Counted from the stretch's first letter, positions 6,525 through 28,299 are shown. The stretch: DNA of 32,000 nt from Nitrosococcus oceani ATCC 19707 (GCF_000012805.1 NC_007484.1:1350001-1382000), one strand, 5' to 3'. The notes: a model not told the origin generated them from the letters alone. Translations and numbers: made by a program.

Positions 6525-6541
6525 GCATAAGGGGGGGTGTT

Positions 6542-9523: not shown

Positions 9524-9525
9524 CA

Positions 9526-11425: not shown

Positions 11426-11487
11426 TGTGCAGAGAGGGAAGTTTTTGGAATAGGTTATAAGGGGCACAGTGAGAGGGTGGATATATT

Positions 11488-12129: not shown

Positions 12130-13288
12130 ACCTTCCTTACCGTTAATATCCCGAGTTCAAAGATTTTCCTTGCTTGTTGGAATAATAGGGCTAATGCTTT
12201 CCGGGGTTGGCGCCTATTTTCAGTATCAGCAATTCCTGGTTTCTTATTTGTTCGCTTACATTTTTTGGATCGGTATCTCCTTGGGCAGCCTGGCGATCCT
12301 TATGATTCATTATTTAACTGGCGGGACTTGGGGATTGCTTATTCGTCGCCCTTTGGAGGCGGCAACCTGGGCGCTACCGCTTATGGTGGTTCTTTTTATT
12401 CCTTTGGCTGTGGGATTATCTGAAGTTTATGCTTGGGCGCGGCCTGAGGAAATAGCTAATAATTCTTTGTTGCAGAAAAAAAATTGGTATTTAAATATCC
12501 CTTTTTTTCTTGTTAGGTCCACTACCTATTTTATTATTTGGCTGGGTATTGCCTACTGTCTGAGCAGCTGGTCTAGAAAACAAGATAAGAATCCAAAAAC
12601 AGGAATTGTGTTAGGCCTCCAGCGATTGAGTGGAGGCGGATTAATTTTATTATCTTTAAGTGTAACTTTTGCCGCTATCGACTGGGTGATGTCTTTGGTT
12701 CCGGAGTGGACTTCAACGATTTTCGGTTTTATTTTTGGAATTAGCCAAATGTTGGCTGCTATGACTTTCGCGGTGATTATTGCTGGTTATCTGTCCAACA
12801 TTAAAATATTATCAGAAACTTTTTCGCCTGCTATTTTTCATGATTTTGGTAATATTTTACTGATGTTTATTCTGCTATGGGTTTATTTATTTTATATGGA
12901 ATATTTGATTGTCTGGTCTGGAAATTTACCCCGTGAAATTTCCTGGTATGTCCCCCGCGTGGAAAGCAGTTGGCGGTGGGTAAGCATGTTGCTCATTGTA
13001 TTTTACTTTATTATACCCTTTGTGGCACTCCTGTTTCGTTCTTTAAAAAGAACAAGAAGTACCCTGGTGGGGATCGCCGCTATTATTTTTCTCTCCAGTT
13101 TAGTGAATTCTTTTTGGCTAGTTGTGCCCTCCCTGCGTATTGAAGGCTTTGAACTTTATTGGACGGATCTAGTGGTTCCCATTGGAATGGGCGGGTTTTG
13201 GCTAGCCGTCGTACTTTGGCGGCTGCAAAATGTCTATTCCCTACCTGCTCGGATACCTGTAGAGGAAGCAATGGAGCATGGCAGATAA
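12110..13288 (+). CDS. actF: Alternative complex III subunit ActF (second NrfD-like membrane subunit)
   Basis: 392-aa polytopic membrane protein with a 20-nt overlap with actE. It occupies the canonical last position of actABCDEF. Confidence 0.85.
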   Translation: MITRQNEPSLPLISRVQRFSLLVGIIGLMLSGVGAYFQYQQFLVSYLFAYIFWIGISLGSLAILMIHYLTGGTWGLLIRRPLEAATWALPLMVVLFIPLAVGLSEVYAWARPEEIANNSLLQKKNWYLNIPFFLVRSTTYFIIWLGIAYCLSSWSRKQDKNPKTGIVLGLQRLSGGGLILLSLSVTFAAIDWVMSLVPEWTSTIFGFIFGISQMLAAMTFAVIIAGYLSNIKILSETFSPAIFHDFGNILLMFILLWVYLFYMEYLIVWSGNLPREISWYVPRVESSWRWVSMLLIVFYFIIPFVALLFRSLKRTRSTLVGIAAIIFLSSLVNSFWLVVPSLRIEGFELYWTDLVVPIGMGGFWLAVVLWRLQNVYSLPARIPVEEAMEHGR

Positions 13289-13697
13289 CCTATCGGGCCA
13301 GGAGCGCTACCGGCATGAAACCACGGATGTGCAGAACTATACCATTGTGTGGCTAGGACTGGTTATCCTTTTGGCCATCGTTTTGGGTGGATTCTTCGTA
13401 TTTGGCTTAATTCATCTATATGAGAACAACCAGCAAGAGATTGAGTCAACCCCACCAAAAAAAGAAGATATCATGGAACGAGTTCCTTCAGCACCTTATT
13501 TAGAGGCAAGTTCTGGCGCAGGGTTGGCTGAGTTGCAAGAGAAAAATGAGGATTTATTACATAGTTACGGTTGGGTGGATAAAAAACGGGGTATCTTTCA
13601 TATCCCTATCAAATATGCCATGGAATTATTAGTAGAAAAGAATTCGCAAACTCAAGAAGATATGGCTCACAGTAAAAAGCAAGTATCCCATCCCTAG
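13278..13697 (+). CDS. Small single-pass membrane protein between actF and coxB (function unknown; occupies the position of small accessory ACIII subunits)
   Basis: 139 aa. Its start overlaps the actF stop (ATGGCAGATAA). It has one TM helix (IVWLGLVILLAIVLGGFFVFGLI) followed by a soluble tail containing YGWVDKKRGIFHIPIKYAMELL. Confidence 0.65.
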   Translation: MADNLSGQERYRHETTDVQNYTIVWLGLVILLAIVLGGFFVFGLIHLYENNQQEIESTPPKKEDIMERVPSAPYLEASSGAGLAELQEKNEDLLHSYGWVDKKRGIFHIPIKYAMELLVEKNSQTQEDMAHSKKQVSHP

Positions 13698-13729
13698 ATG
13701 AACTAATTTCTATAGACTTGGAGACTTTA

Positions 13730-14365
13730 ATGATGGAAGGTTTTGGTTCATTTCTGGGAGAAGCATCCAGTTTATCGCGCCATTTCGACACTCTTTTTCT
13801 AGCATTATTTATCCTCTGCAGTCTTGTTACCATCATCATTACTTTCTTGATTATTTTCTTTGCTGTTAAGTATCGGCGTGGTGCTAAAGTAAACCGGTTT
13901 ACAGTACGCAAATCCACCGCCATTGAGTTTGTTTGGACTCTCATCCCTTTTGGTCTTTTTTTGGCTATTTTTGTATGGGCTGCCTATTTTTATACGGAAC
14001 TTTTATTTCCGCCAGATGATGAGATGGTGGATCTAGATATTGCCGTGGTGGGTAAGCAGTGGATGTGGAAGCTGCAGCACCCCAATGGGAAAAGAGAGAT
14101 TAATAAATTACATGTGCCATTGGGTAAAAATATCCGGCTAACCATGGTTTCACAGGATGTTATTCATAGTTTTTTTATCCCTGCATTCCGCATTAAGCAT
14201 GATGTATTGCCGGGACGTTATAGTACAATTTGGTTTCGTCCCATCAAGCTTGGCGAATACCATCTTTTTTGTGCTGAGTATTGTGGGACGGATCATTCCC
14301 GTATGCGCGGTAAAGTAGTTGTCATGGAGCCCTCAGATTATGCACAATGGTTACAACAAAAATAG
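13730..14365 (+). CDS. coxB: Cytochrome c oxidase subunit II (CuA subunit, no fused cytochrome c domain)
   Basis: CuA ligand pattern H-x34-CAEYCGTDHSRM, two N-terminal TM helices, and no CxxCH anywhere. The ATG at 13730 follows GGAGA (13720-13724); the track start at 13718 is a TTG. Confidence 0.9.
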   Translation: MMEGFGSFLGEASSLSRHFDTLFLALFILCSLVTIIITFLIIFFAVKYRRGAKVNRFTVRKSTAIEFVWTLIPFGLFLAIFVWAAYFYTELLFPPDDEMVDLDIAVVGKQWMWKLQHPNGKREINKLHVPLGKNIRLTMVSQDVIHSFFIPAFRIKHDVLPGRYSTIWFRPIKLGEYHLFCAEYCGTDHSRMRGKVVVMEPSDYAQWLQQK

Positions 14366-14436
14366 TGGTTATAAAAATAAGAAAGGAAGGTTAGTGGAAA
14401 AATTTCCTAAATATACTTTTCTAAAGAGATACTCTC

Positions 14437-16044
14437 ATGAGTGCTAATGCTGCTGCAGAATACACGAGCTATCTTGGTGGGGGAGATACCCTAAAATCCT
14501 GGTTAACAACACTTGATCATAAGCGTATAGCTGTACTCTATCTCATCTCTATTACGCTGTTCTTTCTTATTGGGGGAGTAGCTGCTGCCGTGATACGCCT
14601 AGAATTAGTAACCTACGCGGGGGATTTTGTTACGGCCGAAACCTATAACAAAACTTTCTCTCTCCATGGTATTGTCATGGTCTGGTTTTTCCTAATTCCT
14701 TCCATTCCAGCGACACTAGGTAATTTCCTTATTCCGCTGATGGTTGGCGCTCGGGATCTTGCTTTTCCCCGCTTGAACTTGGCGAGCTGGTATTTATATA
14801 CGGTAGGGGGGATATTTACTATTGGTATGGTGATTGCCGGTGGCGTAGATACAGGATGGACCTTTTACACGCCATTTAGCACCATGTTCTCCAACACGTA
14901 TGTTGTCGCGGCTGTTATTGGGGTGTTTATCGTTGGTTTTTCTACTATATTCACTGGCATAAATTTTATTGTAACCATTCATAAAATGCGAGCGCCAGGT
15001 TTAACCTGGTTTCGTTTGCCCATGTTCGTGTGGGCCAATTATGCTACCAGTGCCATCATGGTGCTGGCGACTCCCGTGCTGGCAATGACTCTTACCTTGG
15101 TGGCAGTTGAACGGATATTCCAGATAGGCATCTTTGATCCTGCGTTGGGGGGAGATCCTTTGTTATTTCAGCACCTGTTCTGGTTTTATTCCCATCCTGC
15201 TGTGTATATTATGGTTTTGCCTGCCATGGGAGTAGCGAGCGAGCTTATTGCTTGCTTTTCTAGAAACCCTATTTTTGGTTATCGCTTTATGGCTTACTCC
15301 GTAATGGCCATTGCGGTCCTTGGTTTTTTGGTTTGGGGTCATCACATGTTTGTGAGTGGCCAATCTGTTTATGCGGGCATGATGTTCTCGCTATTTAGTT
15401 TTGTGGTTGCTATTCCCTCGGCTATCAAAGTTTTTAATTGGACTGCTACCCTATACAAAGGATCTATCTCTTTTGAAGCGCCCATGCTTTATGCGCTAGG
15501 ATTTGTATTCCTGTTTATGATTGGCGGTCTAACTGGAATCGTTGTGGCGGCTCTGGCCCTGGACGTTCACTTGACGGATACTTACTTCGTGATTGCCCAC
15601 TTTCACTATATTATGGTGGGGGGATCGGTGATGGCGTATTTGGGAGGTATTCACTTCTGGTGGCCTAAAATGACCGGGAAAATGTATTCTGAAATGTGGG
15701 GTAGGGTTGCCGCTGTATTAATTTTCGTGGGCTTTAATGTAACATTCTTCCCGCAGTTTTTGCTGGGTTATTTAGGTATGCCAAGGCGTTATCATGAGTA
15801 TCCGGAGGCACTAGAAGTGCTCAATGTAATCTCTTCAGGGGGAGCCGTAATTCTAACATTGGGTTACCTTCTACCCCTCGTGTATTTATTATGGTCATTG
15901 CGCTATGGGCGTATTGCCGGTGGGAATCCTTGGGAGGCAAAAGGATTAGAGTGGCAAACCTCCTCGCCACCTGCTAAACATAATTTTAAGGAAACCCCCG
16001 TCGTGACGGAGGAAGCCTATGCTTATTCGCCATATAAGGTTTAA
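14437..16044 (+). CDS. coxA: Cytochrome c oxidase subunit I, A2-type haem-copper oxidase
   Basis: 535 aa. Has WGHHMF (CuB His pair) and HFWWPKMTG. The motif YSHPAVY (15187..15207) replaces the GHPEVY of A1 enzymes, which is the Tyr-Ser signature of A2-type oxidases. Confidence 0.95.
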
Positions 16045-16094
16045 TTAAAGGGTAATGTCCGGCTTTTAACTCATGGTGTTTGATTAAAATTAAA

Positions 16095-16739
16095 ATGAGC
16101 GACAAGCACACTGCTGTAGCAGAGCAATTTGATGATCCGGAGCAAGAATACCATGCAGCCACCCTCGGCATGTGGGTGTTCCTTGCAACTGAAGTCCTTT
16201 TTTTTGGCGTTTTGTTTGCTAGCTATGCGGTCAGCCGGTTTAATTATCCTGAAGCGTTTGCGGAAGCGAGCAGACACACGGATATCGTGCTCGGCACTAT
16301 CAGCACTGGTGTGTTGTTAACGAGCGGTTTTACCATGGCGCTTGCGGTCCGCAGCGCAAAGTTGGGAAGAGATAAAGCAATCATAGGTTTCCTGGTTTTG
16401 ACCATACTGCTGGCAATAGCGTTTCTTTTTATTGAAGGGACAGAGTATTACCAAGCCTATGGAGAGCAGCTTATTCCGGCCTTTAATTTTATGTATGAAG
16501 GCGCCCATGAAAAACCAGTAGAGCTTTTCTTCTTTCTTTATTTTTTGATGACGGGGATGCATGCCGTACATGTTACGATTGGCATTCTTATAATGGCGGC
16601 TATCGCCATCATGGCTGGACGCAGGCGGTTTACTAGTTATTATTATACGCCGGTTGAACTTACAGGGTTATATTGGGCCTTTGTGGATATTGTTTGGATT
16701 TTTCTTTATCCACTTTTCTATTTGGTAGCGCGGACGTGA
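16095..16739 (+). CDS. coxC: Cytochrome c oxidase subunit III
   Basis: Polytopic protein with HAATLGMWVFLATEVLFFG, MTGMHAVHVTIG and WAFVDIVWIFLYP, all typical of subunit III. The ATG at 16095 is preferred over the TTG at 16080. Confidence 0.9.
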   Translation: MSDKHTAVAEQFDDPEQEYHAATLGMWVFLATEVLFFGVLFASYAVSRFNYPEAFAEASRHTDIVLGTISTGVLLTSGFTMALAVRSAKLGRDKAIIGFLVLTILLAIAFLFIEGTEYYQAYGEQLIPAFNFMYEGAHEKPVELFFFLYFLMTGMHAVHVTIGILIMAAIAIMAGRRRFTSYYYTPVELTGLYWAFVDIVWIFLYPLFYLVART

Positions 16740-17428
16740 AGGGGCGAGATATCGCTTCATGGAAAACCCAGCTATGGGTATGGGTGATTTTAATTATCTT
16801 GCTTTTGGGAACTTTTGGCAGCGCCTATATTTCGTTGGGTCCGTTTAATCTTGTAATCAATATATTCATTGCCATAGGCCAGACGTTATTGGTACTAACC
16901 TTCTTTATGCATCTGAGATACCGTGACCATTTGGTAAGAATCTTTGCGGCGGCGGGATTTTTTTGGCTTCTCCTCCTTTTCGTCTTTACTCTGAGTGATT
17001 ATATCACTCGCCTGGAGCCAGTTTCCGCCAATAAGCTTGTCTATGTTTATCCTGGTGTTAGTGCTAAGGAGCAGCCGGATCATCCTCCGCCATCATCACA
17101 AAAGCGGGTAGAAGCTTCCCCACAAGCGGCCCAGTTAAAATCTCAGCTGTCAAGGAAAGTAAATCTAAAGAGAGGTAAGAAAGTCTATCAGGAGACTTGT
17201 TTTGCATGTCATGGAACGGGGGCTTTAGGTGCCCCCAAAAAAGGAGATAAAGCAGCTTGGAGTAAGCGTGCTACGCAAGGGCTGGAAACCTTAGTTACCC
17301 ATGCTATGAATGGTTACAAAGCGATGCCCCCTAAAGGAGGGAATCAGAAATTAAACGTTAACGAGATACGGAGTGGGGTTGTTTATATGCTAACTGAATC
17401 TGAGGTTGTATTAGGGCAGAAGAAATAA
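16736..17428 (+). CDS. Prokaryotic oxidase subunit IV (COX4_pro-like, 3 TM) fused to a C-terminal class I cytochrome c (c5-like) domain
   Basis: The GTG at 16736 overlaps the coxC TGA (GTGA coupling); the track start at 16673 is a TTG inside coxC. The N-terminal half carries the IAIGQTLLVLTFFMHLRY signature of subunit IV. The C-terminal half has GKKVYQETCFACHGTGALGAPKKGD...GYKAMPPKGG. Confidence 0.8.
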   Translation: MKGRDIASWKTQLWVWVILIILLLGTFGSAYISLGPFNLVINIFIAIGQTLLVLTFFMHLRYRDHLVRIFAAAGFFWLLLLFVFTLSDYITRLEPVSANKLVYVYPGVSAKEQPDHPPPSSQKRVEASPQAAQLKSQLSRKVNLKRGKKVYQETCFACHGTGALGAPKKGDKAAWSKRATQGLETLVTHAMNGYKAMPPKGGNQKLNVNEIRSGVVYMLTESEVVLGQKK

Positions 17429-17632
17429 AAGCTCATAAAAAATAGGGACGCATCATTACCTACCTATATAACACCTGTGGTGGGAGAGGTATAGGCAGGC
17501 TTAACTTCTTTACCCCCTACAAAATATTGATGGAAAAACATTTTGTAAATATAAGTTCGTGCGGTATTCAGGGCTAGCATAGATTAGAGAGTGATTGCAG
17601 CTGGCAAGGGACAGCGGAGATTCCGCCAAAAA

Positions 17633-17670
17633 TTTTACCCCCGCTTCAAAAAACTGAAGCGGGGGTAAAG
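17633..17670. terminator. Strong hairpin between convergent operons (candidate bidirectional intrinsic terminator)
   Basis: A perfect 14-bp stem, TTACCCCCGCTTCA (17635-17648) with TGAAGCGGGGGTAA (17655-17668), and a 6-nt loop AAAAAC. It lies 26 nt past the stop of the minus-strand operon. On the minus strand it is followed by AAAATTTTT. Confidence 0.6.
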
Positions 17671-17695
17671 GTCCTAAAGCATAAAAAGAAGAGCT

Positions 17696-19285
17696 CTAGT
17701 AAGAATGATGATTAGGGTTTGAGGCGCTATCGTAATGATTTTTTTGAGCTAAAATCTCCTCGGCAGCGTTACCGTTCTCCGCAACCGGGGCAGTTTCTAC
17801 ACGTGCTACCCAAGCTTGTAAGGTTTTATCTGTGGTAGTGAGGATTTGTTGTGGAAATAGACCAAGGAGTAATGCCAACGAAACCATGGTGCCGGCTATC
17901 CAGTATTCCCGTGAACGCAAATCTACGGTCTCTTTTACCGTAGCGCGGGTAACGGGACCAAGGAATGCCTTCTGATAAAAAACTAGATAGTAAGCAGCGC
18001 TTAGAATGATGCCTAGCAGCACGGCTAGTCCCATTCCTATATGGGCTTTGAATGCGCCGATCACGATTAGGTGTTCAGCGGCAAAACCATTGGTACCAGG
18101 CACACCAATACTTGCCAAGCCAAGAATAAAAAATAACGATGCTAAAATAGGCATGGGACGTGCCGCGCCGCCTAACGCAGTCAATTCAGTCGAGCCTAGT
18201 CTGTACTGGAGAAATCCTGCTATAAGGAAAATACCGCTGGCTACGATGCCAAAATTGAAGAGCTGAAACACTGCCCCTTGGATACCTTGGATATTGAAAG
18301 CAGCCGCGCCAATTAGCACGAAGCCTGCATGGCTGATACTAGAATAAGCAAGCATACGGCGTAGATTTGTTTGTTTTAGGGCAATCAATGCCCCATAGAT
18401 GGCGCCGATCGCGCCTAACAGCATCATTAGAACAAAATACTGGCTTGCGGCCTGGGGGGCCAGAGGTATGGCAAAGCGGATAATGCCAAATAAGCCTAGC
18501 TTTAGGCCTACGATGATGGCGGTGATGCTTGCCGGACCTTCCATCGCCATTGTCGGCAGCCAGACATGAAAGGGGAACAAAGGAGCCTTGATGGCAAAGC
18601 CGAAGAATAGTAATAAAAAAACTATTGATTGAGTCGCCAGAGGAATGGGGGTTTGCAGCAGTTCCATGTAGTTAAAGGAAAGCCCTGCTGGTGCGGCTAT
18701 TCCTGTTTCATTGGCGTGATTCAGCCCTAGCAGGATAAACCCAAAGAGCAAGAGAATTCCGCCGGTCAGCATGAACAGTACATATTTGAGCGCGGCATAG
18801 CGGCGGTGGACGCCGATTCCCCATAGGCTGATAAGAAAAAATAAGGGAGGCAGCGTGAGTTCCCAAAATAAAAAAAATAAAGCGAGATCCAGAGTGCAAT
18901 AGACGCCGATAGTAATGCCTTCCAGGAATAGCAGTAGGGCAAAATATAAGCTGGAGAGTGTTTTTATACTACGCCTGGAAGCTAATATCACAGCTACCGT
19001 GATCAGTGCGGTTAGTGGCACGAAGAGTACCGATAGCCCATCGACGCCTAGCAGATAATCGATATTCAGGGTCGGTATCCAGCTATGCTGCTCTACAAAC
19101 TGCATGCCATCCTGGTTAGGATCGAATAGCCCTAGCAGGATAAGGGATAGCAGCAGCTCGGCAACCGCTACCCCTAGCGCCACAGATAAGATCCGGTGCT
19201 TATTACGGATGCGGAGCAGGCTAATGCCTGCCACCACGGGAAGAAAGATCAAAAGACTGAGAAGGGGGAAAGGGGATGTTTCCAC
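17696..19285 (-). CDS. NuoM/NdhD/MrpD-like proton-antiporter-type membrane subunit (PF00361 family), last gene of the DAB-like operon
   Basis: 529 aa with a GTG start. Has LGVDGLSVLFVPLT, FFLFWELTLPPLFFLI (TM5 Glu) and GFAIKAPLFPFHVWLP (TM7 Lys), all hallmarks of NuoM-type subunits. Confidence 0.85.
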   Translation of the reverse strand: METSPFPLLSLLIFLPVVAGISLLRIRNKHRILSVALGVAVAELLLSLILLGLFDPNQDGMQFVEQHSWIPTLNIDYLLGVDGLSVLFVPLTALITVAVILASRRSIKTLSSLYFALLLFLEGITIGVYCTLDLALFFLFWELTLPPLFFLISLWGIGVHRRYAALKYVLFMLTGGILLLFGFILLGLNHANETGIAAPAGLSFNYMELLQTPIPLATQSIVFLLLFFGFAIKAPLFPFHVWLPTMAMEGPASITAIIVGLKLGLFGIIRFAIPLAPQAASQYFVLMMLLGAIGAIYGALIALKQTNLRRMLAYSSISHAGFVLIGAAAFNIQGIQGAVFQLFNFGIVASGIFLIAGFLQYRLGSTELTALGGAARPMPILASLFFILGLASIGVPGTNGFAAEHLIVIGAFKAHIGMGLAVLLGIILSAAYYLVFYQKAFLGPVTRATVKETVDLRSREYWIAGTMVSLALLLGLFPQQILTTTDKTLQAWVARVETAPVAENGNAAEEILAQKNHYDSASNPNHHSY

Positions 19286-19302
19286 GGTATATAATCCTAC
19301 GG

Positions 19303-20844
19303 TTAATTCATAACTAGGGCGGTTTCAAAGCGCTGCGATAACGCGGTCAGAGAGCCGTCGACCATTTCAAGCCAGGGTCCCGTATAAAAGCCAATACCTG
19401 CCAAAACACTACAGACGGTGGCGGCTAATAGGATTTCAGGCACATCCAGCTTGATCTTCTTGGGCTGAAGCGCTCTTTCCCGACGTTGGGCCAGGAAGGC
19501 GCGTTGGAAAGCCCATAGAAGGAAGGCGGCGGCCGCCACAGTGCCTGAAGCTACGGCAACGGCGATGCTCCAATGATAGGTGGCTATCGCTCCTTCCAAT
19601 ATGAGATGGGCCGCATCAAAGCCAGGAGTACCGGGCATGGCCATGGTGCTAAGGGCCGCGATCAAGAAGGTAAAACCCAGCAAGGGAGTAGCATCGAACA
19701 AGCCGCCTAGGCGAGGTAGCAGTGTGGTACGAGTGCTGCGGTAGAATATCCCCATCACGAATAGCAACCCACTGGCGGCGACTCCAAAATTAATCGTCAG
19801 CAGGAGGCTCCCTTCCAGGCCCACTCTATTTAGACAGAAAACGCCGATGATGAGCAAACCAGTGTGGCTTACCACGGCAAAGGCCAGCAGGCGGCGCAGG
19901 TTAACTTGCAGCAAGGCCATGACCGCGCCATAGAAGGTGCCGATGATGGCGAGGGTTACGATGAAACTTTTCCATTCTTCTACGGCATCGGGCATGAGGG
20001 GCAAGATAAAACGCAGTAAGGCATAAAGGCCCACTTTAAGGCCGACCAGGAAAACGCCTAGAGTCGCCACCGGGCCATGCTGCGCGACGATGGGTATCCA
20101 AGCGTGAAAGGGGAATAACCCTAAGCGGGGAGCAATACCAAATAAAAATAGTACGAAGATAGGCGCTTGCGCCTTTGGGCTAAGCGGCGAGGCCAAAAGA
20201 TCCGTGAGGGCAAACGACCAGCTTCCCGTCGCCTCAGCGTGGTACCAACCGAGGAGCAAGATGGCGATTAACAGCAACCCGATTCCTCCCACCATGTCTT
20301 GGAGGTAACGGGAAAGCGCCCAGTTTTTCTCTGGACCTTGGGTGGTTCCCCAGCGATGTAAAATAATCCCTGCTGGGACTAGTTCCAACGCCAGAAGCAG
20401 CCAAAATCCTAACAAGTTGATGCTCATGAATAATCCCATCAGCACTGCCTGAAAGGCAAAGATACTGGCCACATAAAAGCCTATGGGACGCTCATCGACA
20501 ATCTCCGTGGAGACGGTTTTACAGTAAAGGATAAGCAGCAGAGTCAGCAGGGCGGTGAGGGCAACGAATAAAATACTGATACCGTCCACGCCCAGATGAT
20601 AGAACAAAAAGGGAGGCAACAGCGAAACCCGTTCAACAAATTGGAGGTTAGCGGTACCGGTTTCGAAATGAGTCAGCAAATAGATTGCCAGACCTAGTTC
20701 TAAAGCGGCTGCAATAATACCTAATAGGACGGTTGAATTAGATTTAACGATTAAGGCGATGGTCATGGCCAGGAGCGGCAGCACGATCATTGTGCTCAGG
20801 ATGGGGAAGCCTGCTTGCGCGGACCAACTTATTTCGGCAATCAT
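19303..20844 (-). CDS. Divergent NuoM/NuoN/MrpD-like antiporter-type membrane subunit
   Basis: 513 aa with an ATG preceded by AGAGGA. Has HLGVDGISILFVALT and LALELVP (Glu retained), but the TM7 motif reads FGIAPRLGLFPFHAWIP, with Arg where the paralogs have Lys. Confidence 0.85.
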   Translation of the reverse strand: MIAEISWSAQAGFPILSTMIVLPLLAMTIALIVKSNSTVLLGIIAAALELGLAIYLLTHFETGTANLQFVERVSLLPPFLFYHLGVDGISILFVALTALLTLLLILYCKTVSTEIVDERPIGFYVASIFAFQAVLMGLFMSINLLGFWLLLALELVPAGIILHRWGTTQGPEKNWALSRYLQDMVGGIGLLLIAILLLGWYHAEATGSWSFALTDLLASPLSPKAQAPIFVLFLFGIAPRLGLFPFHAWIPIVAQHGPVATLGVFLVGLKVGLYALLRFILPLMPDAVEEWKSFIVTLAIIGTFYGAVMALLQVNLRRLLAFAVVSHTGLLIIGVFCLNRVGLEGSLLLTINFGVAASGLLFVMGIFYRSTRTTLLPRLGGLFDATPLLGFTFLIAALSTMAMPGTPGFDAAHLILEGAIATYHWSIAVAVASGTVAAAAFLLWAFQRAFLAQRRERALQPKKIKLDVPEILLAATVCSVLAGIGFYTGPWLEMVDGSLTALSQRFETALVMN

Positions 20845-20858
20845 TTCGAATCCTCTAT

Positions 20859-22400
20859 TTATAATGCTGCAAGTAGCGCCGCGATGATTAAAGCGACTAA
20901 AAACCGTGGCTCGCTTAGCAGTGCTTCAAACCGGTTGAGGGCGCTACCTAGCTGGTGGCGGCCTACACGGACTATATCTTCGCCAATGCCCCGCAAAATT
21001 AGGCGGTCTTCAAACCAGTAAAAAAGATCGGCTAGCGCATAAATTAGCCGTCCTCCCAGGCCGCTGACTTGAATAACTTCTGGATCGGCTTGATAGTCCC
21101 TTCGCTCAGCTGATTCTGTTGGTGCTGTGGATGTTTTGGGTATAGGCAGACCTGCTGCCGAATCCACAATCCGGCTGTCGAAATAATGGAGATCACTACC
21201 AAGTCGCTGGATGGGTTTAACGGCAATCCAATCGCCTAAATTTTCTAACCAGAGGCGCTGCAATGAAGCCAGATAAAGCCAGCGCCGTTTCTCTAGAAAG
21301 TTGGGAACCGGGCGCGGCGGATTATCTTTAATCTGCTGCATAATAGAAGAAGAAGTGAGGAACTGATATCCTCGGAATACCGCGTGGGCGCATAGATGCC
21401 ATAGCGCCAGATCCCAGAAACCTAGGCCCGCTTCGAGAAACATCAGGCCCACCTGGGCCGTGGTAGAGAAAATCAAGGCGCTTTTAGTATCCGTTTGGGT
21501 AAGCCCGCAGAAGAAACCGTAAATCGCCGTTAAAAGCCCTATGATCGCCATCAGCACCATGACTAGTGGAGCATGTTCAAATACCGGCTCCGATCTGAGA
21601 ACTAGATAAATGCCCGCATGTACCATAACTGCCCCATAAAAAATGGCGCTGGAAGGCGTGGGCCCTACTATGGCCCGTGCCAACCATGGCGCCAAGGGTA
21701 CCTGGGCGGATTTGGCAATGGCAGCTAAAAGAAAACAAAGGGCCAGCACCCGGGCTTCCCCGCGGGGCAGCTCGGCTGCATCGTTGGCGATATCGTTCCA
21801 TTCGAAACTGCCAATCCAGAAAAAGGAAAAAAAGATAGCTGTTACAAAAGCGATATCGCCAATACGTGTAGTAATGAAGGCCCGGGTTGCGTTGTTAGCC
21901 GCGACCGTCCGGTCATAGGCGTAGGCAATTAGCAAATAGGAAGTAACGCCAGCGACTTCCCAGCCCACGAAGCTGAGCACGGCGTTACCACCGATCGCCA
22001 GTAATAGCATGGCGCCGGCAAACAGGGAAAGCACCAGGAAAAAGCGGTGAAATCCGGCTTCACGATGCATGTAGTTAATGGAAAAACGTATTACCATCAC
22101 GGAGAGGATGATGCTCGTTGTAGCCATAGCGAGGCTGAGGTTATCAAAAATGAAACTAATATTGATGCGATAATTTCCGCTTTCAAACCAGGTTCCTAGA
22201 ACAATATGCTCGGCAAGGAGGCCCTGCAGCTTCATGAAGATGGCTATCAGCACCGCTAATAGGGAGATACCACTAGCATACAAGGTGATGCGGGCGGTGA
22301 GGCGCTCGCTGGCCTCACCGGCAATGCGGCCCGATAATATGCCTATGCCGATAAAAAGGGCGGCCAAAAAAGGAGGCAGGACGATAAGTTCAGGCAGCAT
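20859..22400 (-). CDS. dabB: NuoL/NdhF/MrpA-like antiporter-type subunit, DabB-type partner of DUF2309
   Basis: Has the NuoL-type N-terminal module (FDNLSLAMATTSIILSVMVIRFSINYM) plus FVGWEVAGVTSYLLIAY and AKSAQVPLAPWL. The preferred ATG at 22400 (MLPELIV) is preceded by GGAG and overlaps the dabA stop by 11 nt; the track start at 22427 is a TTG. Confidence 0.85.
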   Translation of the reverse strand: MLPELIVLPPFLAALFIGIGILSGRIAGEASERLTARITLYASGISLLAVLIAIFMKLQGLLAEHIVLGTWFESGNYRINISFIFDNLSLAMATTSIILSVMVIRFSINYMHREAGFHRFFLVLSLFAGAMLLLAIGGNAVLSFVGWEVAGVTSYLLIAYAYDRTVAANNATRAFITTRIGDIAFVTAIFFSFFWIGSFEWNDIANDAAELPRGEARVLALCFLLAAIAKSAQVPLAPWLARAIVGPTPSSAIFYGAVMVHAGIYLVLRSEPVFEHAPLVMVLMAIIGLLTAIYGFFCGLTQTDTKSALIFSTTAQVGLMFLEAGLGFWDLALWHLCAHAVFRGYQFLTSSSIMQQIKDNPPRPVPNFLEKRRWLYLASLQRLWLENLGDWIAVKPIQRLGSDLHYFDSRIVDSAAGLPIPKTSTAPTESAERRDYQADPEVIQVSGLGGRLIYALADLFYWFEDRLILRGIGEDIVRVGRHQLGSALNRFEALLSEPRFLVALIIAALLAAL

Positions 22401-25400
22401 GATGGGTCTCCGTCTGTTTGGGTTCAACTAGCGCAGGTGGCCTAGGATCGCTATAACCGTCATACCAGTCCATGGAGCGCTCCACCACCGGCAAGGGTGA
22501 GGGTTCCCGATAGCTTTTCCAGGGAATAAATCCTTGCTTAGGATCGAACACCGAAATTTTGCCGGTTTTTGGGTGGATAGCTGCTAACAGCAGCCAACCG
22601 CCATCAATGAGCTGGCGCAAAGGTGGCAGCAACCAGCTACCTCCGGCGGGCTCTTGGGAAGAGGGTTGGCGCTTGTAGATAGCGGTCAGGGTTTCCGTGG
22701 TTGCTTCCACTACGGTTAGAACGCGCATGGGCTCATGAACATCAACCATTTGATAGGAACACCAGGTGCGTAAATCATCGTCAATACCCTGCATGACGCC
22801 AAATAGACCGGTTACGTTTTGGGCTACCTTTGAGCCACTACCAAATCCCTGGTTATTGGCGGCCGAAAAGTAATAATCCAGATTAATACCTACGCCTACC
22901 GGGCCAGCGTTCTTAAGGACGCCTTCAAGAATAGTGCCTTCTGCGTCATCAATAGTTGGATCATAAGAAAGCACGAAGCAGCGGCGGTCTAGAAATATCC
23001 CCCGGGTGACGGAACGGCGCCCGATAAGCGCCGAGGCAACCGTGGCATGGCCTAGCTCTGGCCGGGCCTGGCTGAAGTCCGTGCCACGTTCGGCAACATG
23101 TCTCCTGGCCTGCTGTAGACTAGGTTTACGGGGTGCCGAAGCCATGCGCCGACAACGTTCATGGGCTGACAGCAGGAGGGCCTGATCAACTTCGGCTTTC
23201 AATTTCTTCAGGGCGGGCGCGAAATTAGCGGGCACTTTATCCAGATCGAACCAGGGGAACGATTCGGAACAAGTATCATGTTCCGTGCCGATGAACCAGG
23301 TGTCGTCAGGAATGTGGATACCTTGTTCAGCGAGCCGTGCCCGTATTTCCGGCCGGTTAGCCATGGCCGCAAAAGCGCGGGCATTGGGTCCGCCATGGCG
23401 CCCGCCGGAGGCGCCGCAGTCATAAGAAGCTAGCTGGGGGTTATTTTCGCTCATGGAGCCATGCCCGGATAGCACCACCAGCGGCGCAAAGCCAGAGGTA
23501 AACCCGATAGCGCGTAGAAAGGCTGCTAATCGTTCAGCTTGCTCAGCATCGGTGAATCCTACACGTAGATTATCGGGTGTGGCTTCCGTGCCGTCGTCCG
23601 GTACAGTAAGTTTCAATTGGGTCGGTACGGGTGGCACAAGCGCAGCGGTAGCTTTGCGTTTTAGCGATGCTTGCTGGAAGGGAAAGAAAACCTTGCCTGC
23701 TAGCACAGCTAGCATTCCAGGGAAGAGGACATCGATTAATACCTTTGAAGTCAATAGGTCGCGGCGGGTTTTATTATGAAGTACGCGAAGTAGAAATTGC
23801 TTGAAGTTATAGAGGCGTTTATGGAGGCCGTACCGTTTTTTTGCTTCCGGACGAGGTTCTTCATGAAGTTCATTAACAGGGGTTACCACAACCGGACAAT
23901 GGGGGGTGGTATCAGGGTAATCTAACCCGCGCCACTGAATGGGTACACCGAAAAAGCCTGGCGCCCCCAAGGTTTCAAGGTTAGGGTTGACTTCCTCTAA
24001 ATGGCGGCGAATACCTTCCTCCCGGTCGTCGAAACAGAAGATCAGTTGTGCCTCTGGGCGTTCATTCCGGTTGGCCCAGCGGCCACGCCCATGATTCTGA
24101 GTCAGCGCAGCGAAATAATCCTCCCGGTAATGGTACTCATAAGCACAGAGCCAGATATACCCCCGTTCTGAGGTGGTCAATTCATCCAGGATGGCGAGCA
24201 GTTGTTCAGCCTCGCTGGAGGAAAGTTTGCCCACCTCATTTCCCGGCAGACCTAGATGCTGTGCTAGGCAGAATAAACGCCAGACATGAGAATGCACGGT
24301 TTGACGTTTTGTCCTTTCCGCCGAAGGATTGTGCTTCCAGTTATGAATCATATTGGAGACCGTGCGCCAATTTTCCCGATCCTTTTGGGCAGTTCTGGGC
24401 AGAGCTATCAGTTCTTGTGCTCTGATGGCCAAATATTCTGGGAGCGTGTTTGAAAATAGCGCATACCGCCCAGAGAACTCCCAAAGGTAATTCTCGAAGT
24501 AAGTTTTGAGTTCCTCTAGATTACCGGCGATACCCCAGGTGTTTTGGGTAACCTGTTCAATATGAATCACATCCAAGAAGAGGCGGATAGCCAGATAATC
24601 CATAAGCGAAGTAGGGGCCTTCCGATTCGGCTTATATTTGGGCCGATGGTGGCGCCAGTTAATAAGACCGGACCAGCCTGGAAGTTCCACAGCTATCCGT
24701 TTCAGGTAACCTTCCCAACGGGATTCTGGGATTTTCAATCGCTCAAGGCAGGCAATAACGGCATCTACTGAGTGCTCTGGTAACTCGGCATGGAACGACT
24801 GCCAATCCGGTAGCCTAGCCAAGTCTAGTCCGAGTTCAGCGAAGGGGCACTTTCGCCATGCGGCATAGAGCCCTTGCCCTCGCTCCGGTAGACTCCAGGC
24901 TGTGAAGCCTTCATCAAGATGGGAAGCACAGAAGCGAATCAAGATGGGACGAACCTGATCTAAAAGATCCTCACCAGTCAGTGCTTGTAATAGACCACGC
25001 AGGGAGAGTTCCTCACCTACCTTATCGACTAGATGATGAAGATCTTTTCGTGCTTCAGCAAGCATTTCTTCTTGGGGGATAAGCGTGGGTTGGCTTGTGC
25101 GGAATTTACTCTGTTTACCTTCGGCCTGGCTGCGGGAAAATTCTTCTAGGTCTACCAGTTCCCCTAACTCTTCCGAATGCAGATTAGGATTTTCTAACTG
25201 GAAAACCCTTAAACATGCTTCCCATAGATCTCGGATGGCCTGGCTTTCCGTACGGCGGTTTTGATCTGTCTCTTGGGTAGCGTTAAGCAGTGTGTCGCGG
25301 GCAGATTTTGGCACGCCGTTCTGAAAACGCTCCAGAGCATCATATTCCTTGATTTGCCAACGAAAACGGCTGGGAGAAAGAGGGTTAATGTCCTGGATTA

Positions 25401-25767
25401 GGCTGATACGCCAAATGTCCTGTTTATTGATAGGACGGCCACTAACTTTCAGTACAATTTCGCGATTACGGCCATGGGTATTGTTTGCTAGGGATTCGTT
25501 AAGGTCAGCATCGTCAATACGGCCCCGGGCATAATGCTTACGGAAGTCTTCTTCAGGCAAGTAACCTCGGATGCCAGTCAGCTCAAAGTGAGCCGCCATG
25601 GCTTCGGCGAAGGAGATATGGTGGTAGCCCTGCATGGTGTTTAAGTGCATGAAGTCATACAGGGGGGCTGCGCATGGCAGCACGAGTTCTAACTTGTCTA
25701 CCGCGGTAGTCAGTTTTTCTCGGTTATCTAAGGGCGATTCCGCCTGTTCGGCGTGGTGTGCGCTCAT
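22390..25767 (-). CDS. dabA: DUF2309 (UPF0753, PF10070) protein, DabA-type putative energy-coupled carbonic anhydrase subunit
   Basis: 1125 aa. Family-typical blocks are ERGYIWLCAYEYHYRE, LIFCFDDREEGIRRHLEE, GAPGFFGVP, SGHGSMSENNPQLASYDCGASGGRHGGPNARAFA, FIGTEHDT, RPELGHA, INLDYYFSAANNQGFGSGSKVAQNV and HEPMRVLTVVEA. The RBS AGGAG lies 6 nt upstream of the ATG. Confidence 0.9.
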   Translation of the reverse strand: MSAHHAEQAESPLDNREKLTTAVDKLELVLPCAAPLYDFMHLNTMQGYHHISFAEAMAAHFELTGIRGYLPEEDFRKHYARGRIDDADLNESLANNTHGRNREIVLKVSGRPINKQDIWRISLIQDINPLSPSRFRWQIKEYDALERFQNGVPKSARDTLLNATQETDQNRRTESQAIRDLWEACLRVFQLENPNLHSEELGELVDLEEFSRSQAEGKQSKFRTSQPTLIPQEEMLAEARKDLHHLVDKVGEELSLRGLLQALTGEDLLDQVRPILIRFCASHLDEGFTAWSLPERGQGLYAAWRKCPFAELGLDLARLPDWQSFHAELPEHSVDAVIACLERLKIPESRWEGYLKRIAVELPGWSGLINWRHHRPKYKPNRKAPTSLMDYLAIRLFLDVIHIEQVTQNTWGIAGNLEELKTYFENYLWEFSGRYALFSNTLPEYLAIRAQELIALPRTAQKDRENWRTVSNMIHNWKHNPSAERTKRQTVHSHVWRLFCLAQHLGLPGNEVGKLSSSEAEQLLAILDELTTSERGYIWLCAYEYHYREDYFAALTQNHGRGRWANRNERPEAQLIFCFDDREEGIRRHLEEVNPNLETLGAPGFFGVPIQWRGLDYPDTTPHCPVVVTPVNELHEEPRPEAKKRYGLHKRLYNFKQFLLRVLHNKTRRDLLTSKVLIDVLFPGMLAVLAGKVFFPFQQASLKRKATAALVPPVPTQLKLTVPDDGTEATPDNLRVGFTDAEQAERLAAFLRAIGFTSGFAPLVVLSGHGSMSENNPQLASYDCGASGGRHGGPNARAFAAMANRPEIRARLAEQGIHIPDDTWFIGTEHDTCSESFPWFDLDKVPANFAPALKKLKAEVDQALLLSAHERCRRMASAPRKPSLQQARRHVAERGTDFSQARPELGHATVASALIGRRSVTRGIFLDRRCFVLSYDPTIDDAEGTILEGVLKNAGPVGVGINLDYYFSAANNQGFGSGSKVAQNVTGLFGVMQGIDDDLRTWCSYQMVDVHEPMRVLTVVEATTETLTAIYKRQPSSQEPAGGSWLLPPLRQLIDGGWLLLAAIHPKTGKISVFDPKQGFIPWKSYREPSPLPVVERSMDWYDGYSDPRPPALVEPKQTETHHAA

Positions 25768-25798
25768 GAGATTCTCCTAAATTCTATATGGAAGTCTA

Positions 25799-27256
25799 TT
25801 AAGGGAAACCGGCACTGAGACTGATGACGTAAGCCCCAAATAATTCTAGGGCGGAGGCTGGCATCAGGCCTAAGGCGATAATACCGAAAGCCAACACCCC
25901 AGCGGAGGCGAGCTCCGTGCCATGCAGGTCCTTCAAAGCGCGCATTTCAGGTCGAACCGGGCCGGTAAATAAACGAACGATAGTCCGCATGGCATAGGCA
26001 GCGCTGATGACTACACCGAGACTAACTAGCAGTACCCACCAACCCCAGCGTTCGAAGCTGCCGATGAGCGCATGAAGTTCAGCCGGAAATCCAACAAGGC
26101 CGGGTAAGCCTATCGAAGCCAGCAAGGCTAACGTGGTAAACAGGGCAAATTTAGGCATCACTTGGACCAGCGAACTGTAATCGGCGACCTCACGGCTGTG
26201 AGTTCGATCGTAGAGTAGGCCGATTAGCAGAAACAGGGAGCCGGCCACCAAGCCATGGGCGATCATCTGCATGGTTGCGCCCAAAAAACCCGCTTCATTG
26301 AGGGCGGAGATACCCAGAATAACAATCCCCATATGGCTAATCGAGGAATAGGCGATCATGGCTTTGAGATCGCTCTGGCGCCAGGCTAGTAACCCTCCAT
26401 AGACGATACTAAACAGTGCTAGTCCAGCTAATAAAGGCTGAAGGGCGAGGGCTGCGTCCGGCAGCATTCCGATAGCGCGAATAAGGCCATAGGCCCCCAT
26501 TTTTAGCAATATGCCAGACAGCAGAATACTCACGGGGCTTGGTGCCTCCACATGGGCTAAAGGGAGCCAGCCATGGAGGGGAAAGATAGGGACCTTAACT
26601 CCAAAGCCAATTAACAGCCCTAGAAATACCAGTATTTGCTTATCCAGGGGCATTTGGGAGGCGGCCTGGGTCATGGCGGCGATGGTAGTAGAGTGCTCGC
26701 TGGATGAAGTGTAAATTATCAGTAGGCTGACCAGCATGAATACGGAGCCACCCATGGTGTAGAGCACGAAGTTCAAGCTAGCCATCTGCCGGCGTTTGCC
26801 GCCCCACTGATCGATGAGAAAGAACATTGGGATTAGGGTCAGTTCCCAGAAAACGTAAAATAGCGCCCAGTCTTCGGCCATGAACACGCCCAGCACGCCG
26901 CATTCCAGCACTAACATGGCAATATTGTAGCCCTTGGGGCGATCAGTCATGTTATAAGAGGCCAAAATGGCAATGAACGAGAGCAGTGTTGCCAGCAGTA
27001 CCATGGGCAAGGCGAGGCCATCCATGGCTAAAGCATAGTGACTCCCCAGCTCTGGATTCCAGGGTTTCAGTTCCACAAGTTGAAACTCGGGACTACTGGC
27101 ATCAAAGACTAACAATAGGGAAAAACTAAGGATAAGCACGAGCGCTGATACCCCCACCGTAGTACGGCGTATTAAGAGAGATTTATGGGGGGGCATGAAT
27201 GCGATGATTAGTGCGCCGATAACCGGCGTAATTAGAATTAGGCTAAGAAATCCCAT
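25799..27256 (-). CDS. NuoM/NdhD/MrpD-like antiporter-type membrane subunit, first gene of the DAB-like operon
   Basis: 485 aa. Has ALAMDGLALPMVLL, FYVFWELTLIPMFFLIDQWGGKRR and GFGVKVPIFPLHGWLPLAHVEAPSPVS, the canonical NuoM pattern. Confidence 0.88.
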   Translation of the reverse strand: MGFLSLILITPVIGALIIAFMPPHKSLLIRRTTVGVSALVLILSFSLLLVFDASSPEFQLVELKPWNPELGSHYALAMDGLALPMVLLATLLSFIAILASYNMTDRPKGYNIAMLVLECGVLGVFMAEDWALFYVFWELTLIPMFFLIDQWGGKRRQMASLNFVLYTMGGSVFMLVSLLIIYTSSSEHSTTIAAMTQAASQMPLDKQILVFLGLLIGFGVKVPIFPLHGWLPLAHVEAPSPVSILLSGILLKMGAYGLIRAIGMLPDAALALQPLLAGLALFSIVYGGLLAWRQSDLKAMIAYSSISHMGIVILGISALNEAGFLGATMQMIAHGLVAGSLFLLIGLLYDRTHSREVADYSSLVQVMPKFALFTTLALLASIGLPGLVGFPAELHALIGSFERWGWWVLLVSLGVVISAAYAMRTIVRLFTGPVRPEMRALKDLHGTELASAGVLAFGIIALGLMPASALELFGAYVISLSAGFP

Positions 27257-27336
27257 TGTCTCAATTCTTATTTGTGTGGCTAGGATAGACAGGCGTATGC
27301 AGATTCGACTTTATAGAGTTAGGACTATTACACATA

Positions 27337-27346
27337 GGGCATGCCC
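27337..27346. promoter_or_regulatory. Perfect 10-bp palindrome GGGCATGCCC upstream of the minus-strand operon (candidate operator)
   Basis: Self-complementary 10-mer about 80-90 nt upstream of the ATG at 27256, embedded in AT-rich sequence. There is no functional evidence. Confidence 0.25.
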
Positions 27347-27511
27347 CTTTAAAGATATATTTTGAGTTAAAACGATATTGCGGAAGTATCTTTAACAAAG
27401 AATACTTTAAGCAAATTTTATGCCTATCATTTATTTGATAATAATAATTTGCTGAACTATAAAAGAAAATAAGGAACTAATGCCAAATTTTCGAGACTAA
27501 GGATCAAAAAA

Positions 27512-27549
27512 ATGGTTTATTTAAACCATTGATATGGTTTATTTCAACC
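27512..27549. promoter_or_regulatory. Tandem 16-nt repeats ATGGTTTATTT(A/C)AACC, each containing the dyad GGTTTA-TT-T(A/C)AACC (candidate transcription-factor sites)
   Basis: Copies at 27512-27527 and 27534-27549 differ at one base and start 22 nt apart. They sit in the 416-nt divergent intergenic region between the DAB-like operon and the DUF938 gene. Confidence 0.3.
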
Positions 27550-27672
27550 GATAAAAAAAACAGAGGGTGATTTGCCCCATTTCATGGCCAGGTATATTCT
27601 TTTTTAGCGGAGTCCTTTGCCCTCAGTGAGAGGGCTTCAGTCACGCTATAAACTTTAGAAATTTCAGGTTGA

Positions 27673-28299
27673 ATGTGGATGAAAAATTTTTCACAGGCGT
27701 GTGAAAATAATAAAAAGCCGATTTTAGAGATATTAAAAATCGTGCTTAAAGGGCCTGGTGAGGTATTAGAAATCGGAAGCGGCTCGGGTCAGCATGTGCT
27801 GTATTTTGGGGAGCATCTCCCCCACTTGAACTGGCAGCCGACCGAGCTACCGGCTGGGATAAGTGCATTGCGGGATAATTTAAGCGCAGCCCCCCTTGAG
27901 AACATTCTGATGCCGAGGGTACTCGATGTTTGCCAGTACCCCTGGCCCATAAGCTCTGTCGCTAGCATCTTTACTGCTAATACTTTACACATAATGGCTT
28001 GGCCTGATGTTCGGCATTTTTTCAAGGGTGTCGGGCGGGTACTTAATCCAAATGGCTTGCTATGCATTTACGGGCCATTTCGCTATAGTGGGAACTACAC
28101 TAGCGAGAGCAACGCCTATTTCGATAGGTGGTTGAAAGAGCGAAATCCTGCAAGTGGTATCCGAAATTTTGAAGACGTCAACTTTCTTGCCCAGGAGCAG
28201 GGATTAGAACTACTTCATGATTATTCGATGCCGGCTAATAATCAATTAATAATCTGGGAATTAAGACATTCATTGATGAAAAATCTACCAGCATGTTAA
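27673..28299 (+). CDS. DUF938-family class I SAM-dependent methyltransferase
   Basis: 208 aa. Has NKKPILEILKIVL...VLEIGSGSGQHVLYF (motif I) and LNPNGLLCIYGPF...FDRWLKERNPASGIRNFEDV, typical of the DUF938 family. The start is at 27673 or 27679. Confidence 0.8.
   Translation: MWMKNFSQACENNKKPILEILKIVLKGPGEVLEIGSGSGQHVLYFGEHLPHLNWQPTELPAGISALRDNLSAAPLENILMPRVLDVCQYPWPISSVASIFTANTLHIMAWPDVRHFFKGVGRVLNPNGLLCIYGPFRYSGNYTSESNAYFDRWLKERNPASGIRNFEDVNFLAQEQGLELLHDYSMPANNQLIIWELRHSLMKNLPAC

Follow-up and report, generated by a model that had tools for sequence, protein, structure and literature searches.

We analysed a 32,000-nt stretch of the genome of Nitrosococcus oceani ATCC 19707 (NC_007484.1:1350001-1382000), referred to below as the window, in which five genes on the minus strand at positions 17696-27256 encode a carbonic-anhydrase-like protein, DabA, together with four antiporter-like subunits of the kind that occurs in complex I's membrane arm. 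In transcription order the genes are here named M1, A (DabA), B (DabB), M2 and M3 (Table 1). The junctions between them are tight, with 31 nt between M1 and A, an 11-nt overlap of A and B, 14 nt between B and M2 and 17 nt between M2 and M3. The overlap presupposes that DabB starts at the ATG at 22400, which has the motif GGAGA 8 nt upstream and is likely to be the start used (513 aa) rather than the TTG at 22427; the DabB residue numbers given here count from the TTG, and ATG-based numbers are obtained by subtracting 9. The hairpin at 17669-17634 is the only strong terminator-like site within 17300-27800, and a promoter scan of the region upstream of M1 gave weak consensus matches only, fewer than in shuffled sequence. 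With its tight junctions, no strong internal terminator and a single terminal one, the layout is compatible with one operon.

A preliminary description of this locus had listed five minus-strand genes with these junctions and, except for DabB, these lengths, assigned them to DUF2309/DabA, a NuoL-like DabB and three NuoM-like proteins, and read them as a single operon ending at a strong hairpin. Our open reading frame (ORF) calls, with ATG 22400 for DabB, reproduced the lengths stated there and all four junctions, the Pfam and NCBIfam profile searches agreed with the families, and the only strong terminator follows the last gene. The absence of genes for NuoA/H/J/K, the peripheral arm and the small Mrp subunits, also claimed there, was confirmed among the scanned ORFs of at least 80 aa in the window. 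MrpB/C/E/F/G and the C-terminal domain of MrpA were not found among these ORFs, and the junctions leave no room for them or for a small MpsC/DabC-like gene.

Table 1. Features of the five-gene operon and their positions in the window
Feature	Position	Strand	Basis
M1, NuoM/ND4-type antiporter-like subunit, 485 aa	25799..27256	-	PF00361 234 bits, TIGR01972 496 bits
DabA, beta-carbonic-anhydrase-like catalytic subunit, 1125 aa	22390..25767	-	PF10070 794 bits
DabB, NuoL-type subunit	20859..22400 (ATG, 513 aa) or 20859..22427 (TTG, 522 aa)	-	PF00662 + PF00361
M2, full-length degenerate NuoM-type subunit, 513 aa	19303..20844	-	PF00361 134 bits, TIGR01972 299 bits
M3, NuoM-type subunit, 529 aa, GTG start	17696..19285	-	PF00361 202 bits, TIGR01972 461 bits
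DabA CxD zinc motif codons (C578, F579, D580)	24028..24036	-	Alignment to DabA2 C351/D353
DabA H769-C784 zinc-site codons (HGS...DCG segment)	23416..23463	-	Alignment to DabA2 H524/C539
DabB arm, long amphipathic, residues 369-501, homologous to NuoL lateral helix HL	20925..21323	-	hhalign
DabB C-terminal anchor helix, residues 502-520, TM16-like	20868..20924	-	Hydropathy
Intrinsic terminator, 16-bp stem with 8 G-C pairs, then T-run	17634..17669	-	Just past the last stop codon
AT-rich intergenic region 5' of M1, presumed promoter-bearing	27257..27672	-	Sequence inspection

The DabA protein, which is 100% identical to a Nitrosococcus oceani protein, matches the whole PF10070 model (positions 1-747). 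Its only relative of solved structure is DabA2 of Halothiobacillus neapolitanus (PDB 9rd0_A, E = 7e-64), whose Cys/Asp/His/Cys zinc ligands C351, D353, H524 and C539 align with C578, D580, H769 and C784 of DabA; these four residues are invariant in 77 of 77 clade members. The Pfam match and the invariant ligands bear out the kinship with DAB systems that the preliminary description had proposed. A hydrophobic hairpin lies at about residues 670-698, and an AlphaFold2 model made from 15 sequences (mean predicted local distance difference test score, pLDDT, of 61), too poor for fold comparison, predicts a helical hairpin at 640-710.

Compared with an 871-aa DabA, the N. oceani protein carries insertions mainly at 188-265 and 405-510. 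The length of DabA was considered as a marker of the five-gene form and rejected, since a 1076-aa DabA occurs in an ordinary MpsC/PII/DabB cluster (locus L085). The family overall comprises 1,683 clusters at 50% identity (E <= 1e-30). Some homologs reach 1250-1440 aa (P0257, P0258, P0263, P0272-P0274 and P0277; locus L087) and have 390-570 extra N-terminal residues; the L087 gene adjoins an MpsC gene on a short contig with no separate DabB, and extra-long proteins of this type could correspond to the DabB-DabA fusion to which the DAB1 preprint refers. Position 787 in the DCGAC motif (window 23407-23409), which is not one of the four zinc ligands, is Ser in N. oceani and Cys in all 77 other clade members and in conventional DabAs.

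The second partner, DabB, is a NuoL-type subunit from which part of the usual fold is missing. The PF00361 match covers model positions 4-225 and stops at position 225 of 294, the best NCBIfam matches are NuoL models that extend over residues 13-369 only, and in a structure-database comparison the NuoL, NdhF1 and ND5 chains matched residues 14-370 only. Hydropathy analysis gave no hydrophobic helices between about 360 and 501, a region taken up by some 140 aa of conserved amphipathic sequence, and the core corresponds to transmembrane helices (TM) 1-11 of NuoL only. Within this core DabB keeps E157, R188, D191, K239, H344, H348 and R352, equivalent to E144, R175, D178, K229, H334, H338 and K342 of NuoL. 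The bit scores were 190-202 for NuoL/NdhF1, 126 for DabB2 and 101 for NdhF3, and among the profile models TIGR01960 (ndhF3) yielded 150 bits compared to 285-289 bits for the NuoL models. Retention of the TM5 Glu was examined as a mark of DabBs with a neighbouring subunit and discarded, as the conventional DabBs of two other loci (L030 and L075) also keep it.

For the C-terminal region, we compared an alignment of the window DabB and 62 orthologs with a NuoL alignment using hhalign. DabB residues 369-443 aligned with residues 523-588 of E. coli NuoL, which form the lateral helix HL, with a probability of 98.6% and an E value of 6.6e-16; only the profile-profile comparison was significant, a pairwise local alignment of the DabB C-terminus with E. 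coli NuoL giving a non-significant score of 33. In DabB, 112 aa separate the conserved W-x-[FL]-[DE] motif from the final TM, with a median of 118 aa in the orthologs, as compared to 52 aa in E. coli NuoL, which makes the lateral arm of DabB about 60 aa longer, or about double. The terminal anchor helix was found in the DabB orthologs that were checked, including those of the loci L083 and L084. Conventional DabBs (L030/L075 and L085) keep TM12-15 and have four or five more helices than the N. oceani protein; at the C-terminal end of the L085 protein there is a short HL-like motif, and an anchor helix is missing. Judged from its sequence, DabB thus corresponds to NuoL without TM12-15, its lateral arm being roughly doubled in length and followed by a TM16-like anchor. 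With four helices gone, its topology stays the same. By our own estimate, the additional 60 or so residues would extend about 90 Å if helical, the width of roughly two more antiporter-like subunits.

To compare the channel residues, 61-73 orthologs of each membrane subunit were aligned with NuoL, NuoM and NuoN of E. coli. All three M proteins score best against the NuoM model among the NCBIfam profiles (Table 1), the Mrp models scoring far below the NuoM and NuoL models for the membrane subunits, and the best solved relative of M1 is NdhD1 (6hum_D, 306 bits). M1 has the full NuoM channel set, E138/K221/K252/H308/H334/E393, invariant in 73 of 73 orthologs. M3 keeps E142/K233/K262/H319/E404, with F345 in place of the TM11 His, and these residues are invariant or nearly so in 61 orthologs (E404 in 60 of 61). 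Both proteins thereby carry the TM5 Glu, TM7 Lys, TM8 Lys and TM12 Glu. The corresponding residues of M2, which aligns end to end with NuoM/ND4 chains and has 14 predicted helices, are A152, R240, K270, H327, F353, A412 and H413; across 61 orthologs the TM5 Glu is replaced by V, F, L or A, the TM7 Lys by an invariant Arg and the TM12 Glu by A, I or V, while K270 (the TM8 Lys) and H413 are retained.

The preliminary description had counted four antiporter-like modules, which the alignments show not to be equivalent: M2 is devoid of the TM5 Glu and the TM12 Glu/Lys and has Arg for the TM7 Lys, and DabB has no TM12-15. From these residues M2 resembles a subunit with a structural or relay role, similar to the one described for DabC, and the arm would consist of two complete channels (M1 and M3), one half-channel (DabB), presumably completed by DabA, and one degenerate subunit (M2).

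We surveyed the gene order in related genomes, using one genome per species and 80 loci with a DabA of 43-51% identity, with BLAST used to relate the ORFs at each locus to the five proteins of the window. Sixty of the 80 loci have the order M1-A-B-M2-M3 on a single strand, and another three complete loci have B and M2 fused, giving 63 of 80; nearly all of the remaining 17 are interrupted by contig ends. The hosts belong to the Methylococcales, Nitrosomonadales (Nitrosospira, Nitrosomonas and Nitrosovibrio), Competibacteraceae, Acidiferrobacterales, Sedimenticolaceae, Thiohalophilus and Magnetococcales. Even the metagenomic contig L084, whose DabA is only about 35% identical, has the same five genes in one-to-one orthology. 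The extra NuoM genes are thus conserved partners, as the preliminary description had supposed, and did not come to lie there by chance. Two Methylomicrobium genomes also have a conventional dabB-dabA pair, divergent and located beside the five-gene operon (L030:3274-7793 and L075:3301-7829, minus strand), with a DabA of 871 aa and 34% identity; since the two forms coexist, they are probably not redundant.

Several genes that flank the operon in related genomes are associated with inorganic carbon. A SulP-family transporter is present at about 19 loci, and an SbtA-type bicarbonate transporter and a PII-like protein at 9 (examples of these neighbours are L012:6063-7019, L045:7687-8004 and L016:6496-7860). 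A CsoSCA-like protein of 358 aa with CxDxR and HxxC motifs and a weak match to the CsoSCA catalytic domain (PF20686, 29 bits) is encoded at 22 Nitrosomonadales loci, at 18 of which the gene is located 15-130 nt downstream of M3 on the same strand (examples are L059:17957-19033, L016:17957-19036 and L005:18047-19117). It is absent from the N. oceani window and may be a sixth operon gene in the betaproteobacterial ammonia oxidisers. These neighbours are all inorganic-carbon genes and suggest, through guilt by association, a link to carbon uptake. A histidine kinase gene at 16 loci and one for a universal stress protein at 8 are further common neighbours of the related operons.

The physical association of the subunits is suggested by gene fusions. 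In Competibacteraceae, DabB and M2 form a single ORF (L006, L007, L008, L009, L013 and L027; proteins P0121-P0167), and about 45 protein clusters of such fusions, 1020-1048 aa in size, were recovered from independent NCBI, JGI, ENA and Logan assemblies. In the consensus only about 14 aa separate the DabB anchor helix from TM1 of M2, which fits a periplasmic loop, and a linker this short would put M2 at, or close to, the arm's far end. Moreover, cryo-electron microscopy of DAB1 locates DabC at the NuoM position beside DabB (bioRxiv 10.64898/2026.05.01.722082), so that the site beside DabB is a known docking surface. The fusion and the long lateral helix provide independent, sequence-derived support for a single complex, for which the inorganic-carbon neighbours of the related operons argue as well. 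At the Competibacteraceae loci, the operon is broken up on one side or the other of B~M2, after A or before M3, by unrelated genes, among them those for a PP2C phosphatase, an acetyltransferase of the GNAT type, an Rpn-like nuclease and AAA ATPases. A single 1646-aa M1~DabA fusion in Candidatus Competibacter phosphatis (L003:8366-13306) was set aside as a probable assembly or sequencing error; the join is topologically implausible because M1, with 14 predicted helices, should end in the periplasm. A stray fragment of DabA is present at this locus as well.

Elsewhere, the window contains genes for glycosyltransferases, for an alternative complex III with a caa3 oxidase, for a methyltransferase of the DUF938 family and for pyruvate dehydrogenase E1, and no informative neighbours flank the N. 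oceani operon. At 5880-17428 on the plus strand, convergent with the operon, the alternative complex III genes (a multihaem cytochrome c, a molybdopterin/FeS ActB-like protein, an NrfD-like ActC, ActD, a cytochrome c and two ORFs with no family match) run directly into those of the caa3-type oxidase (COX2, COX1, COX3 and COX4 fused to cytochrome c). None of the neighbour clusters conserved across the 80 related loci contains these genes, and their proximity was dropped as a functional link because the neighbourhood is not kept there.

Taken together, we propose, with a probability of about 0.62, that the products of the five genes assemble into a single membrane complex, which would act as an energy-coupled (vectorial) carbonic anhydrase of an enlarged DAB type. 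Cytoplasmic DabA would hydrate CO2 to bicarbonate at its beta-carbonic-anhydrase-like zinc site and dock on the DabB core, where, by analogy with the DAB2 structure, its membrane hairpin probably fills the gap left by TM12-15. The lateral arm and anchor helix of DabB would clamp the three NuoM-type subunits together as a redox-free arm resembling that of complex I, in which M1 and M3 would retain complete proton-channel chemistry and M2, a degenerate subunit at the far end or close to it, would serve as spacer or anchor. Cations, probably H+, would run down their gradient through M1, M3 and DabB, and this flow, relayed along the arm, would make the hydration by DabA effectively one-way and trap bicarbonate in the cell. 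A possible gain of the extra channels is that inward H+ through M1 and M3 drives out the proton that hydration sets free; they might also let the complex work when ΔpH is low or reversed. The families, conserved residues, gene order, fusion and HL homology are observed; the physical assembly, subunit order, direction of flow, identity of the ion and stoichiometry are inferred. For the more specific version, in which a redox-free complex-I-type arm, built from a truncated L subunit with a double-length lateral helix and three M subunits, one of them a degenerate cap, is coupled to a carbonic anhydrase and bicarbonate is trapped by means of several ions per CO2 or of an inward-H+/outward-H+ exchange that ejects the proton formed in hydration, we consider the odds to be even.

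Several observations weigh against an enlarged carbonic anhydrase. One H+ per CO2 already gives ample driving force, which leaves the need for extra channels unexplained. In DAB2, TM12-13 of DabB form a periplasmic half-channel with the DabA2 finger; since these helices are missing from the N. oceani DabB, and Glu444 of the DabA2 finger has no clear equivalent in the DabA alignment, the coupling site must differ. Many hosts, such as Competibacter and many type I methanotrophs, are not RuBisCO autotrophs, and the complex may serve to supply them with bicarbonate and not as a CO2-concentrating mechanism. Two loci have a long DabA with no adjacent membrane subunits (L050 and L051), and two others have M1 and A only (L036 and L070). 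An AlphaFold2 model of a natural DabB~M2 fusion (P0121) gave confident cores but a predicted template modelling score of 0.53 (mean pLDDT 74), with a low-confidence DabB C-terminus. Finally, an N. oceani microarray paper and its supplement gave no expression or transcript evidence for the five genes, and a proteomics paper on three ammonia oxidisers reported nothing for them. In the two Methylococcales metagenome-assembled genomes with an isolated long DabA (L050:7989-11240 and L051:1879-5115), no antiporter-like gene is located within 8-10 kb, and the neighbours in L050 are housekeeping genes (MlaC, methyltransferase, Ham1, APH and EamA).

Three other explanations were weighed, all of them less consistent with the data than an enlarged DAB. 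According to the first, which we consider improbable, the same five-subunit complex serves mainly in ion translocation, as an Mrp-like Na+/H+ exchanger or a generator of membrane potential, and DabA either drives ion export or senses and regulates it through CO2/bicarbonate. Such a role was suggested for ybcC-type proteins in the COGNAT study, where more membrane subunits were taken to mean more ions (PMC5700660), and the homologous S. aureus system is reported to have first been named a membrane-potential-generating system. It would also suit a marine organism such as N. oceani and the resemblance of M1 and M3 to fully competent channels, and by our own reasoning CO2 trapping needs no extra channels thermodynamically. 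However, it is established thermodynamics that the free energy of CO2 hydration is far too small to push several ions uphill, the Mrp comparisons and the missing small Mrp subunits argue against an exchanger of that type, and the conserved SulP, SbtA/PII and CsoSCA-like neighbours are inorganic-carbon genes rather than genes for Na+ homeostasis. The DABs studied so far spend a gradient to accumulate inorganic carbon (bioRxiv 10.1101/476713).

Alternatively, DabA and DabB could act alone as an ordinary DAB, with the three NuoM-like genes as co-transcribed passengers that form a separate entity or belong to another complex. Published DAB complexes are indeed heterodimers or heterotrimers with no additional PF00361 proteins, a few genomes have the long DabA and no adjacent M genes, and the operon is interrupted by unrelated genes in Competibacteraceae. 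We nevertheless judge this to be quite unlikely, given that order and orthology are strictly kept from 35% to 73% DabA identity, that a family of DabB~M2 fusions exists, and that a DabB without TM12-15 but with a double-length lateral helix and an anchor makes little sense with no neighbours to span.

In N. oceani the canonical nuo operon is located outside the window, and an orphan membrane-arm cluster listed as NuoAHJKLLMN (Noc0474-0481) was strongly down-regulated on energy induction (table in PMC3772326). That the M subunits dock DabA/DabB onto such an arm or onto the alternative complex III/caa3 oxidase, with hydration driven by redox reactions, has a precedent in NDH-1MS, as cited in the DAB2 preprint, and candidate partners both next to the operon and in Noc0474-0481, but is very improbable as the neighbouring genes are convergently transcribed and not conserved beside the related operons, as M2, probably at the far end of the arm, is without the TM5 Glu that links NuoN to NuoK and the E-channel in complex I, and as the subunits do not resemble NdhF3/NdhD3 more closely than NdhF1/NdhD1.

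Ammonia oxidisers and methanotrophs of the Gammaproteobacteria hold central places in the nitrogen and methane cycles, and their acquisition of inorganic carbon is poorly understood. If the operon encodes their machine for the capture of CO2/bicarbonate, it would represent a widespread transport system that has so far not been studied. The more specific version, with several ions per CO2 or H+/H+ exchange, would, if true, be a new energy-coupling architecture in nitrifiers and methanotrophs and a minimal natural model for long-range coupling between antiporter-like subunits. A chain of such subunits, clamped by a lateral helix and placed on a simple reversible reaction with no redox arm, would be a tractable system for communication between distant subunits, and the DAB1 and DAB2 structures of 2026 make the comparison directly testable.

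The operon shares with the DAB systems the DabA family, the zinc site and an adjacent NuoL-like DabB, and departs from them in the missing TM12-15 of DabB and in having more than two or three subunits. DAB2 of H. neapolitanus (DabA2/DabB2, PDB 9rd0) likewise has a DabA of family PF10070, whose zinc site is again Cys/Asp/His/Cys and which carries a membrane hairpin, and an adjacent NuoL-like PF00662 + PF00361 DabB in which the TM5 Glu region, TM7 Lys and TM11 His residues are kept. Unlike the N. oceani operon, which adds three NuoM-type subunits and has a DabA about 300 aa longer, it is a two-gene heterodimer, and its DabB2 has 15 TM, only a short axial helix, and TM12-13 that pair with the DabA2 finger (bioRxiv 10.64898/2026.03.13.711513), whereas the N. 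oceani DabB has an arm of about 130 aa and an anchor helix in place of TM12-15. The resemblance to DAB1 (DabA1/DabB1/DabC; Thermocrinis albus and H. neapolitanus) lies in a third membrane partner beside DabB at a NuoM-type position, in which hydrophobic residues replace the channel residues (DabC there, M2 here), and in a long DabA (1046 aa in H. neapolitanus). The N. oceani operon differs from DAB1 in that M2, with 14 predicted helices, is a PF00361 protein of full length and in that M1 and M3, with intact channel residues, are added.

Like the complex I arm (NuoL-NuoM-NuoN, including the '2M' variants with an extra NuoM), the operon encodes an L-type subunit with a lateral and an anchor helix alongside M-type subunits, and M1 and M3 share the conserved TM5 Glu, TM7/TM8 Lys and TM12 Glu. 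Unlike complex I, it encodes neither NuoA/H/J/K nor a quinone or NADH module, a NuoN-type subunit is missing too, its L-type subunit is without TM12-15, and a carbonic-anhydrase-like protein takes the place of the redox arm. The cyanobacterial-type NDH-1MS (NdhF3/NdhD3/CupA/CupS), which the preliminary description considered the nearest functional analogue, is similar in concept, with a CO2-hydrating protein on L-type and M-type antiporter-like subunits. However, CupA is unrelated to DabA, no match to the Cup family was found among the scanned ORFs of the window, NDH-1MS is driven by electron transfer through the NDH-1 core, and DabB and the M subunits score higher against NdhF1/NdhD1 (6hum) and the NuoL and NuoM proteins than against NdhF3/NdhD3 (6tjv). 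The analogy therefore holds for function only and not for sequence.

The closest precedent in gene content is found in the 'clade C' ybcC operons of COGNAT, in which ybcC is located upstream of a nuoL homolog with extra NuoM (COG1008) and SulP (COG0659) genes nearby (PMC5700660), and the N. oceani operon very probably belongs to the same class of gene clusters. That study (Klimchuk et al. 2017) is a brief bioinformatic note that speculated on multi-ion translocation; it predates the recognition of DabA as a carbonic anhydrase and gives no account of the shortened DabB, its long arm, the degeneration of M2 or the fusions. Desmarais et al. left out genes 'with divergent operon structure' when building their DabB tree (bioRxiv 10.1101/476713). 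In a literature search that omitted most subscription journals, we found no published experimental work on NuoM-extended DabA operons, and the COGNAT note was the only prior mention. The statement in the preliminary description that the architecture is uncharacterised accordingly stands with respect to experiments, but not for the association of the genes, which had been noted in 2017.

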